Shown here piece after piece: positions 11,721 through 52,688 of a stretch of 64,000 nt of DNA. The position numbers and the translations under genes are program-made. The DNA comes from a virus. Its lineage: Duplodnaviria > Caudoviricetes. The first letter of the stretch is position 1. Each line of letters starts with the position of its first letter. The stretch lies in IMG/VR virus record IMGVR_UViG_3300046473_000190, positions 1-64,000 of that record. One strand, 5' to 3'. The notes beneath the pieces are model-generated. The model ran no database searches, was not told the origin of the DNA, and saw nothing but the letters and a program-made list of their open reading frames with translations.

Positions 11721-13508
11721 ATGACTGCACAATACATGATCGTTCCTGCTGCTGGTGCCGAGCCCGCTGATGAATGGGTAAAGCTTGGCGTCGAGGCGCA
11801 GATGGGCAACCGCCCTGCTGATGCCGCCCGTCACTACCTCAAGGCCCTCGGCATTGATCCATCGCACGTCATTGCGACGCTCAACCACGGCATTACCCTA
11901 GCTACCCAGGGCGACCTTAACCAGGGAATGCTGACGCTGGAACGCGCCATGCTGTTCGATGATAAATCGGCCGCCGTGCGAATGAATTATGCTATGATGT
12001 GCCTTAACGCAGGCCGCATCGACGAGGCCATGAAATATGGCGAACTCGCCATCGAGATGGGGAAAACCGACGAAGGGAACCTTGGCAAGACGGCTCCCAA
12101 ACTGGTGATGGCGCTGATCCTGGGGGCTGCGGGTCATTCGGACAGAGCGGTTCCGCTGTATAATGAAATTCTCGATGACGAACCGGATCACCTTCAGGCC
12201 GGAATGAATTCCTGTTTTGCGCAAACTTTGACGTTTGCCACACCGGAAGATTTGTTGCGGCAGCGCAAGCGGTTTTATGACTCCGTCAAGTTCAAGGGTA
12301 CCGTCCGCCGGGTTCGCCACGACGAGGCATGGCCTCGTCCCTTGCGTGTTGGATATGTCGGGGGCGATTTCAAGCAGCATTCAGCCGCGATGATCTTCGG
12401 TAACGTATTGCTTAATCACGACAAAACGAGAGTCCTGCCGTATTTCTATTCGTCATTAGCGGTAAACCCGGATGCCGATCCGTGGTCGAAAGAGTTCAAG
12501 GCGGCGGCGGAAGACCGCTGGCGCGATATCGAAGGCAAGAGCGATGACGATACCGCTGACATGATCCGCGACGACAAGATCGATATTCTGGTTGACATCG
12601 CCGCCCATACCAGTGGCGGACGATTACCGATATTCGTGCGGAAACCGGCCCCTATCCAGGTCACGGCGTGGGGCTTTGCCCACGGGACGGGCGTGCCGGA
12701 AATCGACTACTTCTTTGCCGATGAGGTGTCCGTGCCGCAGGAGGAACGGCAGTGGTTTGCGGAAAAAATCTGGGATCTGCCGTGCCTGGTAACGTTCCGG
12801 AAGCCGAAATACGTGTTTAAGGAAAATTCGCTACTGCCGTATGCGGGTAATGGCTACATCACTTTCGGGTCATCGGCGCGTTACGAAAAGCTGTCCGAGG
12901 CGTGCCTGCGGTGTTTTGCCAAGATCCTGCATAGAGTGCCGGATTCTGTCTTGCGGCTGAAGGATAGCGCCTATGGCAGGCCCTATTCGATTCGTCGGGT
13001 TCTCGACATCATGAAGGGGTTCGACATTGGGCGGGAAAGAATTCAGTTCATCATCGGCTCGAGCCATGAGGAGCACTTGCAGGGTTATCGCAACAGCGAC
13101 TTGCAGCTAGACCCGTTCCCTCACGGCGGCGGCATTGTCAGCCTGGAGCAGCTTTACATGGGGCTGCCGATTATTACGCTCTATGGAACCCAATGCTCTG
13201 GCCGGAATACCGCAAGCGTGCTGACATGCATGGGGCGAGGCGACTGGATTGCCCGCTCGGAGGACGAATACGTCGAAAAGGCCGTCGCATTGGCTAACGA
13301 CATCGAAATGCTCCGATCCGCCAGAAAGACGCTGCGGAGCGAATTGATGGATTCGCCGGTGGTGAAAGACTATTGCAAGGTCGTCGAGCGGGCCTACCAG
13401 GCCATGTGGTGCAAGTATTGCGGCTATAATGTTCCGGCCGAGGATGCTAGTATGGCCGAGGAGCACACCGTCGTAAGGCTTAAGACGAAGAAGGAGATGG
13501 CGGGATGA
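11721..13508 (+). CDS. TPR-containing GT41 glycosyltransferase (OGT/SPINDLY-like)
   Basis: N-terminal TPR-like helices; LRVGYVGGDFKQHS, IDILVDIAAHTSGGRLPIFVRKPAPIQV, FGSSARYEKL, LDPFPHGGGIVSLEQLYMGLPIITL match GT41 motifs, including the conserved His and Lys. Confidence 0.9.
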   Translation: MTAQYMIVPAAGAEPADEWVKLGVEAQMGNRPADAARHYLKALGIDPSHVIATLNHGITLATQGDLNQGMLTLERAMLFDDKSAAVRMNYAMMCLNAGRIDEAMKYGELAIEMGKTDEGNLGKTAPKLVMALILGAAGHSDRAVPLYNEILDDEPDHLQAGMNSCFAQTLTFATPEDLLRQRKRFYDSVKFKGTVRRVRHDEAWPRPLRVGYVGGDFKQHSAAMIFGNVLLNHDKTRVLPYFYSSLAVNPDADPWSKEFKAAAEDRWRDIEGKSDDDTADMIRDDKIDILVDIAAHTSGGRLPIFVRKPAPIQVTAWGFAHGTGVPEIDYFFADEVSVPQEERQWFAEKIWDLPCLVTFRKPKYVFKENSLLPYAGNGYITFGSSARYEKLSEACLRCFAKILHRVPDSVLRLKDSAYGRPYSIRRVLDIMKGFDIGRERIQFIIGSSHEEHLQGYRNSDLQLDPFPHGGGIVSLEQLYMGLPIITLYGTQCSGRNTASVLTCMGRGDWIARSEDEYVEKAVALANDIEMLRSARKTLRSELMDSPVVKDYCKVVERAYQAMWCKYCGYNVPAEDASMAEEHTVVRLKTKKEMAG

Positions 13509-45245: not shown

Positions 45246-45376
45246 TTCCCCGACGTGGCGGGGCCCCAATGCTCCGGGGGTAGCCACGACAGAGTCCAGC
45301 GGGCGGTGACTCTGTTTCGGAAACAACACCCGCAGCGGCGGCGCTTATCTCCTGTGAGTGGCCGCCGCAACTCAAT

Positions 45377-45476
45377 TGTGATGTCGTCACAAAATGTATG
45401 ATTGTTCGATAATGGCTGTTGACAGTAGAGGGTTTATTGCCCTATAGTGGTTTCATCAGAACGGGAGATGGACATG
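45377..45476 (+). promoter_or_regulatory. repeat P1: operator + sigma70-type promoter + RBS
   Basis: TGTGA-N5-TCACA; TTGACA(45419)-18 nt-TATAGT(45443); GGGAGATGGACATG. Confidence 0.8.
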
Positions 45477-45608
45477 AGCAAAGCAAAACCCTGCAAACCC
45501 TGCAAACTCTGTAAACTCTGTAAGCGCCCCACTCTAGCTAAGGATCAAATCTGCGACCGGCATTATATGGATAAGCCTCGCAGTCTCCCGCTGCCGTCAC
45601 GCAAATGA
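45474..45608 (+). CDS. mini-gene, 44 aa Cys/Lys-rich
   Basis: MSKAKPCKPCKLCKLCKRPTLAKDQICDRHY...; directly after P1. Confidence 0.6.
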   Translation: MSKAKPCKPCKLCKLCKRPTLAKDQICDRHYMDKPRSLPLPSRK

Positions 45609-45632
45609 ACCCCCACCCAACAGGAGACGGAC

Positions 45633-45743
45633 ATGACAGACAACCTATTCGACCTAGTCCTTCAGATGCGCGCCGAACAAGCCAAAAAAGACCAAGAAGC
45701 CAAGGACGCCATCGAGCAGGAAAAGAAGGCACGGGCGCGCTAA
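45633..45743 (+). CDS. mini-gene, 36 aa, ends RAR*
   Basis: leader CAACAGGAGACGGACATG; stop codon lies in J1 loop. Confidence 0.65.
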   Translation: MTDNLFDLVLQMRAEQAKKDQEAKDAIEQEKKARAR

Positions 45744-45772
45744 TGCGCCCCAACCAACAGGAGATGGACATG
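45732..45772 (+). repeat. cassette junction J1 (hairpin with stop codon in loop + RBS)
   Basis: CGGGCGCGCTAATGCGCCCC-AA-CCAACAGGAGATGGACATG. Confidence 0.9.
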
Positions 45773-45841
45773 TTGGCCTTGGGCGACATGGTATCTTATG
45801 GTTCCCCAAAGTATCTTAGTGGCGCCTTATGGCTCCGATGA
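45770..45841 (+). CDS. mini-gene, 23 aa (possibly a remnant)
   Basis: starts at J1 ATG. Confidence 0.4.
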   Translation: MLALGDMVSYGSPKYLSGALWLR

Positions 45842-45863
45842 ATGCCATAAAACACGCCGCAAA

Positions 45864-45962
45864 TGTGATGTCATCACAAAATGTATGATTGTTTGGATAT
45901 GGCTGTTGACATAGAGGGTCTATCGCCCTATAGTGGTTTCATCAGAACAGGAGATGGACATG
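45864..45962 (+). promoter_or_regulatory. repeat P2: operator + sigma70-type promoter + RBS
   Basis: TGTGAT-GTC-ATCACA; TTGACA(45906)-17 nt-TATAGT(45929); CAGGAGATGGACATG. Confidence 0.85.
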
Positions 45963-46154
45963 ACCAAGATTGAAAAGCAAGTCTGGAACAAGACCCACCG
46001 CGATTACCGCTCAATTATCAATGGCGAGCGCTACGTGATGCAATACAACTCACAAAGTGGCGGCAGCGAATTGGTTCCCTTGTCCTCTTGCCGCAAAGTC
46101 ACCGAAGCTTACGAGGAATTGAGCCACCGTGCCGGTATTGTGGCCGCCGACTAA
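45960..46154 (+). CDS. mini-gene, 64 aa
   Basis: starts at P2 ATG: MTKIEKQVWNKTHRDYRSIINGERYV... Confidence 0.7.
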   Translation: MTKIEKQVWNKTHRDYRSIINGERYVMQYNSQSGGSELVPLSSCRKVTEAYEELSHRAGIVAAD

Positions 46155-46166
46155 CAGGAGAGGGAC

Positions 46167-46346
46167 ATGACCAATCAGGAAATCATCGACAACCTCTACG
46201 AAGCCCTTAATGGCCTGAGCATCGGCTGGCAAATGACTAATCTGAAGGACGAGGCCAAACGCCAACACCTGCAGGCTCCGGTAAATGCGGCTATCGCAGC
46301 AGTTTCACAGGTTATCGCCGAGTTCGAGAATGGTCGGGCGCGCTAA
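46167..46346 (+). CDS. mini-gene, 59 aa, ends RAR*
   Basis: leader AACAGGAGAGGGACATG; stop codon lies in J2 loop. Confidence 0.65.
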   Translation: MTNQEIIDNLYEALNGLSIGWQMTNLKDEAKRQHLQAPVNAAIAAVSQVIAEFENGRAR

Positions 46347-46375
46347 TGCGCCCCATCCAACAGGAGACGGACATG
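46335..46375 (+). repeat. cassette junction J2
   Basis: CGGGCGCGCTAATGCGCCCC-AT-CCAACAGGAGACGGACATG; 39/41 identical to J1. Confidence 0.9.
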
Positions 46376-46540
46376 ACCGCAACAGATGATCGCCGCAACC
46401 TTGTTGAGTTGTTTGATCTTGCCCGCAATATCGCCGGTTTGGATGAACGCTCAATTATGGCAATGGACCTGCATACTCTCCGAGCCACATTGCGAGAATA
46501 CCGCGATCTGGCTCGCGTCATGCTGGAAACAGTTACATAA
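46373..46540 (+). CDS. mini-gene, 55 aa
   Basis: starts at J2 ATG. Confidence 0.65.
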   Translation: MTATDDRRNLVELFDLARNIAGLDERSIMAMDLHTLRATLREYRDLARVMLETVT

Positions 46541-46541
46541 A

Positions 46542-46769
46542 ATGACCCCCACCGAATTCCGCTCCGCTCTAGCCGCCCTTAACCTCTCTCAGGTAGGGGC
46601 GGCTAGAGCATGGGGAGTCAACCCGCGCACTGTTCGCGATTGGGCAGACATGAGAGGGAAGGGTCCACCACCACCTATTCCAGCACTGCTCTCGGAGGTA
46701 GTTTGGCTGCGGAATAATGTTCCAGACTATGCTGAGCGGTTTGTTCTCAGCAGAGCGATAAAAATGTGA
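46542..46769 (+). CDS. small XRE-like HTH protein
   Basis: MTPTEFRSALAALNLSQVGAARAWGVNPRTVRDW; stop codon overlaps the P3 operator. Confidence 0.75.
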   Translation: MTPTEFRSALAALNLSQVGAARAWGVNPRTVRDWADMRGKGPPPPIPALLSEVVWLRNNVPDYAERFVLSRAIKM

Positions 46770-46862
46770 TGCCGTCACAAAATGTATGATTGTTGGATAT
46801 GGCTGTTGACATAGAGGGTCTATCGCCCTATAGTGGTTTTATCAGAACGGGAGATGGACATG
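46765..46862 (+). promoter_or_regulatory. repeat P3: operator + sigma70-type promoter + RBS
   Basis: TGTGA-N5-TCACA; TTGACA(46806)-17 nt-TATAGT(46829); near-identical to P2. Confidence 0.85.
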
Positions 46863-47039
46863 ACCGAACTAGACCTCGACCAAGTATTACTCCCGCAAGT
46901 CGCACAGCTTGCAGAAGCGGGTGGCGGGTGGGCAAACTGGAATGATCTTCCCGGCGGCGACGAATGGGTACAAGGCGCAATAGACCGTGGCTTGCTGCGC
47001 TACGAAGACGGCTTCGTGCAACTGGCAGCCAAATCATGA
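46860..47039 (+). CDS. mini-gene, 59 aa
   Basis: starts at P3 ATG. Confidence 0.65.
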   Translation: MTELDLDQVLLPQVAQLAEAGGGWANWNDLPGGDEWVQGAIDRGLLRYEDGFVQLAAKS

Positions 47040-47104
47040 CTTCACATCTCGGATTAACGGGATGGCAACTTGGATCAGCAGGACCAACAGAACAGGAGAT
47101 GGAC

Positions 47105-47245
47105 ATGACCCGCTACCAAGTCACCGAAGGCAAAAACAGGAATTGGGCAGTTCTCGACACCACCACCAATGCCCTCGTATTTGAAAGCGACTCTCGGCTG
47201 CTCACTTACGACAAACAAGAAGAGTTAACCCAGCGGGCGCGCTAA
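47105..47245 (+). CDS. mini-gene, 46 aa, ends RAR*
   Basis: leader AACAGGAGATGGACATG; stop codon lies in J3 loop. Confidence 0.65.
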   Translation: MTRYQVTEGKNRNWAVLDTTTNALVFESDSRLLTYDKQEELTQRAR

Positions 47246-47278
47246 TGCGCCCCTCTAAACCAACAGGAGACGGACATG
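47234..47278 (+). repeat. cassette junction J3
   Basis: CGGGCGCGCTAATGCGCCCC-TCTAAA-CCAACAGGAGACGGACATG. Confidence 0.9.
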
Positions 47279-47425
47279 AATGACGAACGCAAAATAATCA
47301 AATATCTCGGTTACACCATCGAGCCAGAGAATAGCGGGAACCTATCAATCTACCGCTTTGGCTACCTGACTAGCTTTCGCAGCATTGATGAATGCATGCG
47401 CTACATCGAATGGAAGGAGGCATAG
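47276..47425 (+). CDS. mini-gene, 49 aa
   Basis: starts at J3 ATG: MNDERKIIKYLGYTIE... Confidence 0.65.
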   Translation: MNDERKIIKYLGYTIEPENSGNLSIYRFGYLTSFRSIDECMRYIEWKEA

Positions 47426-47427
47426 CC

Positions 47428-47547
47428 ATGAAGGATAACGCCAAGCTCGTGATCCGTGCCGCGCTCTACGCTGCCTTAGGCTGGGGCGTGATTGCCTTAG
47501 TCATTCTCAGTACGGGCGCACATTACGACATTTGGCATGCGAGGTGA
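47428..47547 (+). CDS. mini membrane peptide, 39 aa
   Basis: RBS AAGGAGG; one hydrophobic helix. Confidence 0.5.
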   Translation: MKDNAKLVIRAALYAALGWGVIALVILSTGAHYDIWHAR

Positions 47548-47646
47548 GACGCTGGTAGCATCAAAGGGATGAGGTGTTGCTTAACCGCAACACTTTCCTA
47601 ATATTGTTGCGTAGATAGCCGTCAAGGTGGTAAAGTTTAAGGCGCC

Positions 47647-48117
47647 ATGACAGACACGCTCGATATCAATCGCCCAAAACAAAACACCAAGACGCAAGTA
47701 CGCCGTGCTGGTAAGGCTAAGCTAGCCCTCATGCTAGAGGCCACAAGAGGCCTAGATATCAGCAAGTTAGCCGTAGACCATTTGGTCGATGTGCTAGAGT
47801 TCTATGCCCGAATGTGTAACGCCGATCCGTCAAATATGGCCTCATGGATGGATAAGCGAGCTGCAGTAGCCGCTAGGTTAGCACCGTATCAATCGCCCAC
47901 ATTTCAGGCTATTTCCGTAACGGGAAATCAGCAGGATCAGGCCAAACTCGCGCAAATGAGCGATGCGGAGTTAGCTATGGCGCTGAAAGCACGGGCTGAA
48001 GACCTCGGGATGGAAGTTAAGATACGGTCAAAGCTGGAGTATCGGGCGAAACACTTCGCGCGGACGATAGACGAAGAGATCCTCAATGGCCCGCAGCGGG
48101 AAGAGAACGAAGGTTGA
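47647..48117 (+). CDS. putative terminase small subunit
   Basis: AAARLAPYQSPTFQAISV motif; upstream of large terminase. Confidence 0.55.
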   Translation: MTDTLDINRPKQNTKTQVRRAGKAKLALMLEATRGLDISKLAVDHLVDVLEFYARMCNADPSNMASWMDKRAAVAARLAPYQSPTFQAISVTGNQQDQAKLAQMSDAELAMALKARAEDLGMEVKIRSKLEYRAKHFARTIDEEILNGPQREENEG

Positions 48118-52178: not shown

Positions 52179-52688
52179 ATGGGCCCCTACGAGGCATCGC
52201 TGCGTCAGGCGACGATAGAGCGGCGGCGGCGGCTGACGTTTCCGCAGCGGAAGGAAACGGAATGCCGGACAATCTTGTCTTGTACTTTCTCACCGCGGTC
52301 ATGTTCAGTTTTGCCGTCGTTGCCACCATCGGTCATTTCGTCCGGTAAGCCTCGATTGACCATTCATGCCGTCAAGGCGCGGGTGGCGGCGGCTTTCGGG
52401 ATATCCACGAAGAACAAGCGGATTTGGTTGCAAAGGCGCAGTGAGCGGATGTATAGCTCCCGGAATGTCGCGATGGCGTTGGCGAGGGAATTGGTTCCTG
52501 ACGCATCGTTTACGAAAATAGCACGGGCTTTTGGCGAGAGGTCTCATTGCACGGTTTTGCGGGCGTGCCGGTCGGTGGAAAGCCGGTGCAAAACGGATGA
52601 TGAATTCAGTTCGATGGTGTGGGGGTTACGGACGATATTGCGGGAGAATTTCGAGAGTGGAGAGGGGAATGGTCAAGAGACGGACTAG
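52179..52688 (+). CDS. protein with DnaA C-terminal (domain IV) HTH-like domain
   Basis: VKARVAAAFGIS..SRNVAMALARELVPDASFTKIARAFGERSHCTVLRACRSVE. Confidence 0.75.
   Translation: MGPYEASLRQATIERRRRLTFPQRKETECRTILSCTFSPRSCSVLPSLPPSVISSGKPRLTIHAVKARVAAAFGISTKNKRIWLQRRSERMYSSRNVAMALARELVPDASFTKIARAFGERSHCTVLRACRSVESRCKTDDEFSSMVWGLRTILRENFESGEGNGQETD

Follow-up and report, generated by a model that had tools for sequence, protein, structure and literature searches.

We analysed an array of eleven short open reading frames (ORFs, c1 to c11) at positions 45373-47547 of a 64,000-nucleotide stretch of viral DNA (the window), which represents the first 64 kb of the 72,964-bp IMG/VR virus record IMGVR_UViG_3300046473_000190, rated complete by CheckV. 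The array combines small genes with three promoter repeats, a 17-nt leader and hairpin-stop junctions, and within the ~73-kb genome these leaders, junctions and promoter repeats are confined to it. An initial annotation had described it as a plug-in cassette system in which the hairpin-stop junction serves as the joint; our comparison with other contigs and loci (denoted by L-numbers) points instead to three tandem Aca-like autoregulated operons, which probably grew by accretion and were trimmed by scar-forming deletion. All genes and elements of the array and its borders are given on the + strand.

Three promoter-led operons of small genes

Three promoter repeats of ~100 bp, each heading a sub-block of the array as initially proposed, were located at 45373-45476 (P1), 45860-45962 (P2) and 46761-46862 (P3); up to the first gene of each operon, they extend to 45473, 45959 and 46859. 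Each combines a perfect -35 hexamer (45419-45424, 45906-45911 and 46806-46811, respectively) with a spacer of 17-18 nt and a -10 hexamer matching at 5/6 positions (45443-45448, 45929-45934 and 46829-46834), and they constitute the only 11/12 matches to the sigma-70 consensus in the window, which suggests that P1-P3 are strong, constitutive sigma-70-type promoters; transcription from P1 is predicted to start near 45455. Every core promoter also contains an inverted repeat, missed in the initial annotation, that lies between the -35 and -10 hexamers and overlaps the latter (45429-45446, 45915-45932 and 46815-46832). Its arms of 4-7 nt are conserved and its 7-nt centre differs between copies and between phages; a pattern scan detected it at P1-P3 only and nowhere else in the window. 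Such an inverted repeat within the core promoter is the signature of Aca proteins in acr-aca operons (PMC9410906).

Nine of the ORFs start with the same 17-nt leader, present in nine copies (at 45460, 45619, 45756, 45946, 46153, 46359, 46846, 47091 and 47262) that match its degenerate pattern with 0 mismatches. The restriction of this leader to the array was confirmed by searches that allowed up to two mismatches in the window (chance expectation 0.04) and up to one in the entire 72,964-bp record, neither of which found a further copy. By eye, a possible decayed copy can be discerned at 47056-47069, in the 52-nt spacer between c8 and c9. A hairpin in the 5' untranslated region that would sequester the Shine-Dalgarno sequence was considered and rejected, as the predicted transcription start removes the 5' arm of the hairpin.

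The eleven ORFs (44, 36, 23, 64, 59, 55, 75, 59, 46, 49 and 39 aa) occupy the intervals between these elements, tiling the array with hardly any spacers, and fall into three operons, with c1-c3 behind P1, c4-c7 behind P2 at spacers of 1-26 nt, and c8-c11 behind P3. All-against-all BLASTP revealed no mutual similarity beyond translated stretches of leader or promoter, in agreement with the initial description of eleven dissimilar ORFs of 23-75 aa, in which the start coordinates of two were off by one base. Fifteen long genes of the phage served to train a codon model, by which nine of the eleven ORFs appeared coding in both off-frame comparisons, with c1 failing and c8 borderline. The ten small ORFs other than c7 are probably real genes, mostly orphans.

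In the first operon, c1 (45474-45608; 44 aa) is Cys-rich and contains four tandem 9-nt repeats at ~45485-45522 encoding a Lys/Pro/Leu-Cys motif; it is the sole cassette with a codon usage clearly unlike that of the phage. It is followed by c2 (45633-45743; 36 aa) and c3 (45770-45841; 23 aa). The second operon opens with c4 (45960-46154; 64 aa), whose stop codon lies within the next leader and which is an orphan except for a frameshifted copy in L117. For c5 (46167-46346; 59 aa), which has a family of nine distant homologues, a two-helix hairpin was confidently predicted, and a fold search returned generic helical hairpins only, with no informative structural match. Next come c6 (46373-46540; 55 aa) and c7 (46542-46769; 75 aa), the last gene of the operon. 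The third operon consists of c8 (46860-47039; 59 aa), c9 (47105-47245; 46 aa; leader at 47091-47107), c10 (47276-47425; 49 aa) and c11 (47428-47547; 39 aa), a hydrophobic, likely membrane peptide that has its own Shine-Dalgarno sequence and lacks the shared leader. Searches of Pfam and PHROGs with c1-c10 produced only weak helix-turn-helix (HTH) matches, for c7. An atlas search with c8 found nothing above noise; residues 23-46 of c8 (46926-46997) resemble one unit of a designed armadillo protein, a resemblance that we rejected as probably an artefact, since the low E-values were summed over repeats and no single stretch passes.

These ORFs bear on the question of whether the array is primarily a set of RNA sites, in which the leader, with its two close purine-rich motifs, and the hairpins would bind an RNA-binding regulator of the host or the phage or act as a decoy for it, the ORFs being secondary or untranslated. 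Leader positions outside the Shine-Dalgarno sequence are indeed conserved across distant loci, and the loop of a hairpin upstream of the array is complementary to the leader; however, the phage-like codon usage of 9/11 ORFs, their dense tiling and the membership of c5 in a conserved protein family with a confident fold make this reading highly improbable.

In addition to the core repeat, a 15-bp palindrome of unlike sequence is centred ~70 nt upstream of each predicted start (45377-45391, 45864-45878 and 46765-46779), its P3 copy overlapping the c7 stop codon. Transcribed, it would give a weak 5-bp RNA hairpin lacking a T-run. We rejected a CRP site as an explanation, since the half-sites are CRP-like but separated by a 5-nt spacer, and CRP half-sites have a 6-nt spacer. 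Scanning IMG/VR for this distal palindrome identified L113 as the only real match, with L114 and L115 being chance matches.

Module conservation with different cargo

Relatives of the array were found via the conserved 156-aa protein encoded downstream of it, which led to L113; a protein database then yielded the 73-kb contig L116 as well as L117. All three share with the window the HNH gene, the RNA motif at the 5' border and the inverted repeat that precedes the 156-aa gene, at 70-90% identity, and from border to border they measure 1.85 kb (L113), 0.86 kb (L116) and 3.9 kb (L117), compared to 2.4 kb in the window. They keep promoters and leaders and hold different ORFs: the promoter repeats recur, two leaders are present in L116, five in L117 and one in L113, and a second promoter-and-leader type occurs additionally in L113 and L117. 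The only shared cargo consists of c4 (window and L117), c7 (window, L113, twice in L117, L120 and L144) and a 24-aa membrane peptide (L116 and L117), each in a different combination. Cassette content and order therefore vary among the relatives, which do not keep the same cassettes in the same order. Apart from its two degenerate positions, the leader is identical at 17/17 positions between phages that show no more than 70-82% identity in their flanking genes.

The recurrent gene c7, also missed in the initial annotation, encodes a candidate Aca-like protein of the XRE type. Its family shows conservation over the N-terminal ~50 aa, followed by a C-terminal part of ~25 aa that is exchanged between relatives. 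Sequence matches were weak, comprising phage transcriptional regulators and HTH_23, with Pfam HTH_23 and MerR below threshold, and the AlphaFold model shows a five-helix XRE-like fold (pLDDT 80). When a profile of eight c7-family members was compared with the PDB, the top three matches were Aca1, at weak E-values of 0.09-0.12; an hhalign comparison with Aca1 of Pseudomonas phage JBD30, the gene for which was taken from the phage collection, yielded a probability of 91% and an E-value of 1e-6 over 36 columns with 31% identity. Foldseek, run on the c7 model, listed HigA2, Aca2, Aca1, Aca7, Aca10 and Cro at weak E-values (0.07-2), the best structural matches being HigA2 antitoxin chains, with 434 Cro and P2 C listed as well. 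Taken together, this makes c7 a candidate Aca-like autorepressor, distantly related to Aca1.

The match to HigA2 raises the possibility of type II toxin-antitoxin-like modules in HigBA order, with a small toxin upstream of an autorepressing HTH antitoxin, and both the gene order and the operator logic of the array are as in HigBA. Such modules would nevertheless be expected to conserve the upstream toxin together with the antitoxin; instead, the gene upstream of the HTH gene varies in nearly every locus whereas the HTH N-terminal domain is conserved, in L144 the HTH C-terminus has been exchanged with the upstream ORF left unchanged, and no upstream ORF matches a toxin family in Pfam or PHROGs. 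We rejected a HigBA-like pair on the missing co-conservation and assign toxin-antitoxin modules a very small probability overall.

Genes of the c7 family were found in last position after unrelated small ORFs in L113, L117, L120, L144, L118, L119, L153, L022 and L179, usually with a stop codon overlapping start of the HTH gene (in L113, L117, L120, L118, L119, L153, L022 and L179), and wherever the upstream region was available, it held an arm-conserved, centre-variable repeat abutting the -10 hexamer and a closely similar leader. Equivalent core repeats, some of them perfect, occur in L022, L179, L118, L119 and L153. Among these, L118 and L119 are more distant phages and L022 and L179 are IMG/VR contigs with perfect 7-nt repeat arms, all four with a near-identical leader and unrelated cargo before the c7-family gene; L153 is an unrelated 44-kb phage, found via its c5 homologue, with a divergent module and a cargo that is otherwise unrelated. 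In L116, c7, the core repeat and the distal palindrome are missing together. Beyond these loci, the leader pattern gave 97 single matches in IMG/VR, which corresponds to chance level, and a second array was not found there; in 596 Gb of prokaryote genomes, the promoter-leader pattern had 11 matches, none with a c7-like gene.

The same features could belong to an ordinary early region for host takeover or morons, with a Cro-like regulator and small genes of mixed housekeeping roles rather than anti-defence genes, in which the repeats stem from recent duplication of promoters and ribosome-binding sites. Strong host-type promoters combined with tiny genes are typical of early regions, as in the A1-A3 promoters of T7 and the host-takeover module of SPO1, Foldseek lists 434 Cro and P2 C, and no cassette has known anti-defence homology. 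Against this, leader identity of 17/17 beside flanking genes of 70-82% identity exceeds what recent duplication would predict, and an HTH gene that always stands last after hypervariable cargo, together with a repeat inside the core promoter, forms a specific Aca signature. We consider an ordinary early region unlikely, albeit the least so of the rival readings.

The likeness to acr-aca operons, such as acrIF1-aca1 of JBD30, extends to a strong promoter (predicted here), the inverted repeat in the core promoter, and a small HTH gene that stands behind one or several small variable genes. In a recent study, one Aca was reported to control up to three adjacent operons, with RNA motifs located between genes (Feussner et al. 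2026, PMC13551039); the array would resemble that system in apparently using one regulator for up to three adjacent operons and in placing a ~20-nt hairpin ~20 nt before start codons, also between genes. Unlike in JBD30, c7 is marginally similar to Aca1 and misses its N-terminal extension, the operator sequence is different, a second, unrelated distal palindrome is present, and the same 17-nt leader precedes nine of the eleven cistrons. In further contrast to acr-aca operons, no cargo gene is a known anti-CRISPR, and the array is known from sequence alone.

Breakpoints and junctions

Comparison of the relatives located breakpoints in promoters, in leaders, inside c7 and inside the 3' ends of ORFs. 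The block of homology between L116 and L117 breaks off precisely at the second leader's start codon, and the c4 homology block begins in the 5' untranslated leader. L144, a short contig, is 99.4% identical to the window over c4-c5-c6 and the 5' part of c7. From the 3' part of c7 onwards it matches L113, at 97.3% identity, which points to natural recombination within c7 or else to chimeric assembly. L146, from a sister run, has L113-type cargo that continues into a 156-aa gene like that of the window. Six contigs from other samples of the Joint Genome Institute (JGI) are 99.97-100% identical to and colinear with the window, and since the array is identical in these six samples, it is stable over short time spans. 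Shuffling in the array thus appears to be evolutionary, not programmed.

Three identical copies of a 20-nt hairpin-stop element were found at 45732, 46335 and 47234 (chance 0.01), each with the stop codon in the loop and a computed fold of about -13 kcal/mol. At J1 (45732-45772), a 6-bp GC hairpin with the stop in its loop (45732-45751) precedes the leader at 45756-45772; J2 (46335-46375) has the element at 46335-46354 and the leader at 46359-46375, and J3 (47234-47278) at 47234-47253 and 47262-47278. Owing to these elements, c2, c5 and c9 end with the same last three codons and stop (Arg-Ala-Arg-stop), J1 supplying the end of c2 and J3 that of c9, and J1 and J2, read directly from the sequence, are identical at 39/41 positions; on all these points the initial annotation was accurate. 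A different junction, between c1 and c2 (45600-45635), contains a remnant of the first codons of a c7-type HTH gene fused to the leader. This 38-bp junction is present in L113 as well, between unrelated ORFs, so that it is flanked by different genes on both sides in the two phages, as the initial annotation would have predicted.

The origin of these sequences became apparent upon aligning J1-J3, the c1/c2 junction, an L113 junction and two L153 junctions with true c7-family genes on the start codon in the hairpin loop: all of them match the first codons of the HTH genes before changing over to leader sequence. In L120, an intact c7 gene has its start overlapped by the same Arg-Ala-Arg-stop ending, and a c7 copy with an internal deletion in L117 looks like an intermediate of scar formation. 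In eight aligned homologues of c5, the C-terminal tails are longer than that of c5, indicating that J2 replaced the native c5 end. Since the junctions match true c7-family starts before passing into the leader, and since the c5 tail was replaced, the junctions are best read as scars left by deletion of an HTH gene and the promoter following it, with the hairpin independently conserved; because its stop codon overlapped the HTH start, the upstream gene would retain its stop after such a deletion.

Judged by its recurrence in other phage loci, the GC hairpin is apparently more than a scar. The exact hairpin of the window had 4 single matches in IMG/VR, which we count as chance matches. A degenerate pattern of hairpin plus Shine-Dalgarno sequence identified five distinct viral contigs, always between small ORFs; with L153, the hairpin is present in six other phage loci overall, and in L163 it precedes a run of small genes ending in an XRE HTH gene. 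The same pattern had 0 matches in 596 Gb of bacterial and archaeal genomes. The hairpin measures ~18-20 nt, ends 19-23 nt before the start codon, lacks a T-run, and has three constant outer and three variable inner base pairs, its two stem variants being one compensatory pair flip apart. By description only, this geometry fits the Aca1 RNA motif as worded in PMC13551039.

In its strong form, the proposal of the initial annotation amounts to a dedicated plug-in system, in which hairpin, stop and leader form a recombination site at which the ERF and YqaJ proteins actively excise and insert cassettes, in the manner of integrons or of minicircles at promoter-early stem-loops (PeSL), for which there is precedent (PMC2839356). 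Junctions and leaders flanking unrelated ORFs within and between genomes, the Red-like ERF/YqaJ pair located 1-2 kb upstream, and the recurrence of the GC hairpin in other phages all speak for it. The hairpin junction, however, accounts for only 3/10 junctions in the array and is absent from the three closest relatives, many breakpoints lie away from it (in promoters, inside c7 and at ORF 3' ends), and the array retains an identical order at 100% identity in the six other samples. Furthermore, no tyrosine integrase was detected in the 72,964-bp genome by a PF00589 search with positive controls, and the shared homology of 17-20 nt is short for Red-type recombination. What survives of the plug-in proposal is turnover at conserved regulatory sequences; the hairpin junction as a general joint and active or programmed exchange do not, and we regard the dedicated system as improbable.

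Comparison with other known arrays leads to a similar picture. PeSL elements of T4-type phages (PMC2839356, PMC4122927) likewise comprise a repeated sigma-70-like promoter that ends in a Shine-Dalgarno sequence and start codon, border orphan genes within a hyperplastic region and mark indel or replacement breakpoints between related phages, with a GC-rich hairpin involved. In contrast, the hairpin here lies outside the promoter unit and has no terminator features, the module includes an autorepressor gene (candidate c7) and an operator, and the phage is not T4-like: identity as a T4-like myovirus was rejected because the portal is SU10-type, most structural genes have no PHROG match and similarity to known phages is limited to a methylase fragment. 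In lambdoid nin-type regions, short conserved boundary sequences, or mosaic joints, lie between swapped small genes. The array shares with them its position between replication or recombination genes and late genes, whereas the sequences conserved in it comprise whole regulatory elements as well as regulator-gene remnants and exceed the flanking genes by far in their conservation. Like an integron array, finally, it lines up small unrelated ORFs with hairpin-forming repeats between them; unlike one, it has hairpins of 18-20 nt that are not attC and three internal promoters instead of one, and we rejected an integron array since the genome contains no IntI-type tyrosine recombinase (PF00589 search).

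Considering all of the above, we favour, as the probable though by no means certain explanation, three tandem operons under Aca-like autoregulation that form an accessory-gene island in an integrase-less ~73-kb phage, flanked by the recombination/HNH module on one side and by the packaging genes on the other. Each operon would be driven by its copy of the same near-consensus host-type promoter, and a c7 dimer would bind the core repeat and silence all three operons after an initial burst, extending acr-aca logic to neighbouring operons. Each cistron would have been inherited with the module's own 5' leader, acting as a strong ribosome-binding site, and the same regulator may use the GC hairpins located ~19-23 nt before three start codons as RNA operators. 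Homologous recombination at common promoter, leader and HTH sequences would have brought in whole units of promoter, small genes and HTH gene. Redundant HTH-plus-promoter segments would have been deleted afterwards, and the scar of each deletion would consist of the former stop/start overlap with the initial codons of the HTH gene, joined to the next leader. Judged from context, the small ORFs most likely encode anti-defence or other host-takeover proteins, an assignment in which we place lower confidence than in the architecture. A bolder extension, in which leader and GC hairpins together are RNA operators of c7, so that the island is controlled at the DNA level and at the mRNA of each cistron, and in which scars reflect a general growth rule of anti-defence islands, is conceivable but doubtful.

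Several observations weigh against this explanation. The homology between c7 and Aca1 is weak (E ~0.1 against the PDB), and XRE HTH proteins serve also as Cro-like regulators and antitoxins. The cassettes searched (c1-c10), the weak HTH match of c7 aside, belong to no Pfam or PHROG family, c4, c5, c6, c8 and c10 resemble no solved protein in the PDB, anti-CRISPRs included, several ORFs (23-46 aa) are below typical anti-CRISPR size, and the codon usage of c1 is atypical and that of c8 borderline. Covariation in the hairpin amounts to a single compensatory pair flip, and the distal palindrome near -70, confined to the clade of the window, L113 and L117, lacks an explanation. As to turnover, the identity of the array in six other samples gives no direct sign of ongoing recombination, L144 may have been chimerically assembled across 45 nt of identical sequence, and L117 has many frameshifts and is of doubtful assembly quality. 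Finally, a search of 185,579 species genomes revealed no prophage copy, precluding host assignment.

If the favoured explanation is correct, the array would provide ten candidate anti-defence or host-takeover proteins, with about a dozen more in sister loci, and the combination of a promoter with core repeat, the leader and a c7-family HTH gene would offer a handle for metagenome searches, as aca genes do for anti-CRISPRs. Multi-operon and RNA-level Aca control would then also hold for a distant Aca1-like family, in phages that are uncultured and apparently lytic. Tandem accretion with later scar-forming deletion would represent a sequence-documented route for the assembly and trimming of such islands, and PeSL-like shuffling at regulatory repeats would extend beyond T4-type phages.

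Borders and neighbouring genes

Upstream of the array lie genes for the ERF annealing protein, the YqaJ exonuclease, a 122-aa ORF and the HNH endonuclease; downstream follow the conserved 156-aa gene (47647-48117), which has no family match and lies 5' of the methylase and large terminase, and then the DNA methylase, the large terminase and the SU10-type portal. In the phage GenBank collection, no DNA relatives were found, a methylase fragment excepted.

The left border, in the window and in all relatives, is formed by a structured RNA motif of the Proteo-phage-1 type (Rfam RF03044; 45248-45337), which adjoins the array on its 5' side. It scored 41.9 bits (E 1.7e-5), just short of the gathering score of 42, and 41-44 bits in the relatives. 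The motif is followed by a GC-rich hairpin (45335-45368) whose loop, in the computed fold, presents a 9-nt exact complement of the array leader, that is, an anti-Shine-Dalgarno stretch; RNA motif and hairpin together occupy 45248-45368 in the window, 1550-1675 in L113, 5331-5455 in L116 and 3400-3525 in L117. The hairpin stem covaries in the relatives and in the unrelated, array-less contigs L131 and L143, the loop retaining its pyrimidine anti-Shine-Dalgarno core, and in L131 and L143 a T-run follows the hairpin in the manner of a terminator. These two were the only true RNA homologues from a metagenome scan with a 20-nt anchor from this upstream RNA, which mostly returned chance matches within a soil bacterial gene. 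The Proteo-phage-1 RNA and its hairpin may serve as the terminator of a small RNA, regulate the leaders or, given the HNH-terminase surroundings, act as a packaging site at the DNA level, and the leader-complementary loop may add a further layer of control to the array.

At the right border, an inverted repeat at 47571-47593 closes the array and is followed by a short T-rich stretch, with equivalent sites in L113, L116 and L117. Its role may be that of an array terminator or of a site related to packaging.

Many cassette ORFs in L117 (2118-6000 of an ENA contig) are frameshifted or stop early, the c4 homologue included, which could reflect long-read assembly error or real decay of the island. 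A second variable zone was noted between the HNH gene and the RNA motif, at 1300-1546 in L113, 5140-5322 in L116 and ~2250-2940 in L117. It contains a family of small coiled-coil ORFs that is absent from the window, occurs once each in L113 and L116, and forms three or four tandem, partly frameshifted copies in L117. Among or beside the packaging genes, the window also encodes a protein with an HTH of the DnaA C-terminal type (52179-52688), and similar proteins are found near the packaging genes of L116 (9383-9877) and L153 (7080-7709), as well as in L117, where the gene begins at 12167 and leaves the end of the locus at 12429.

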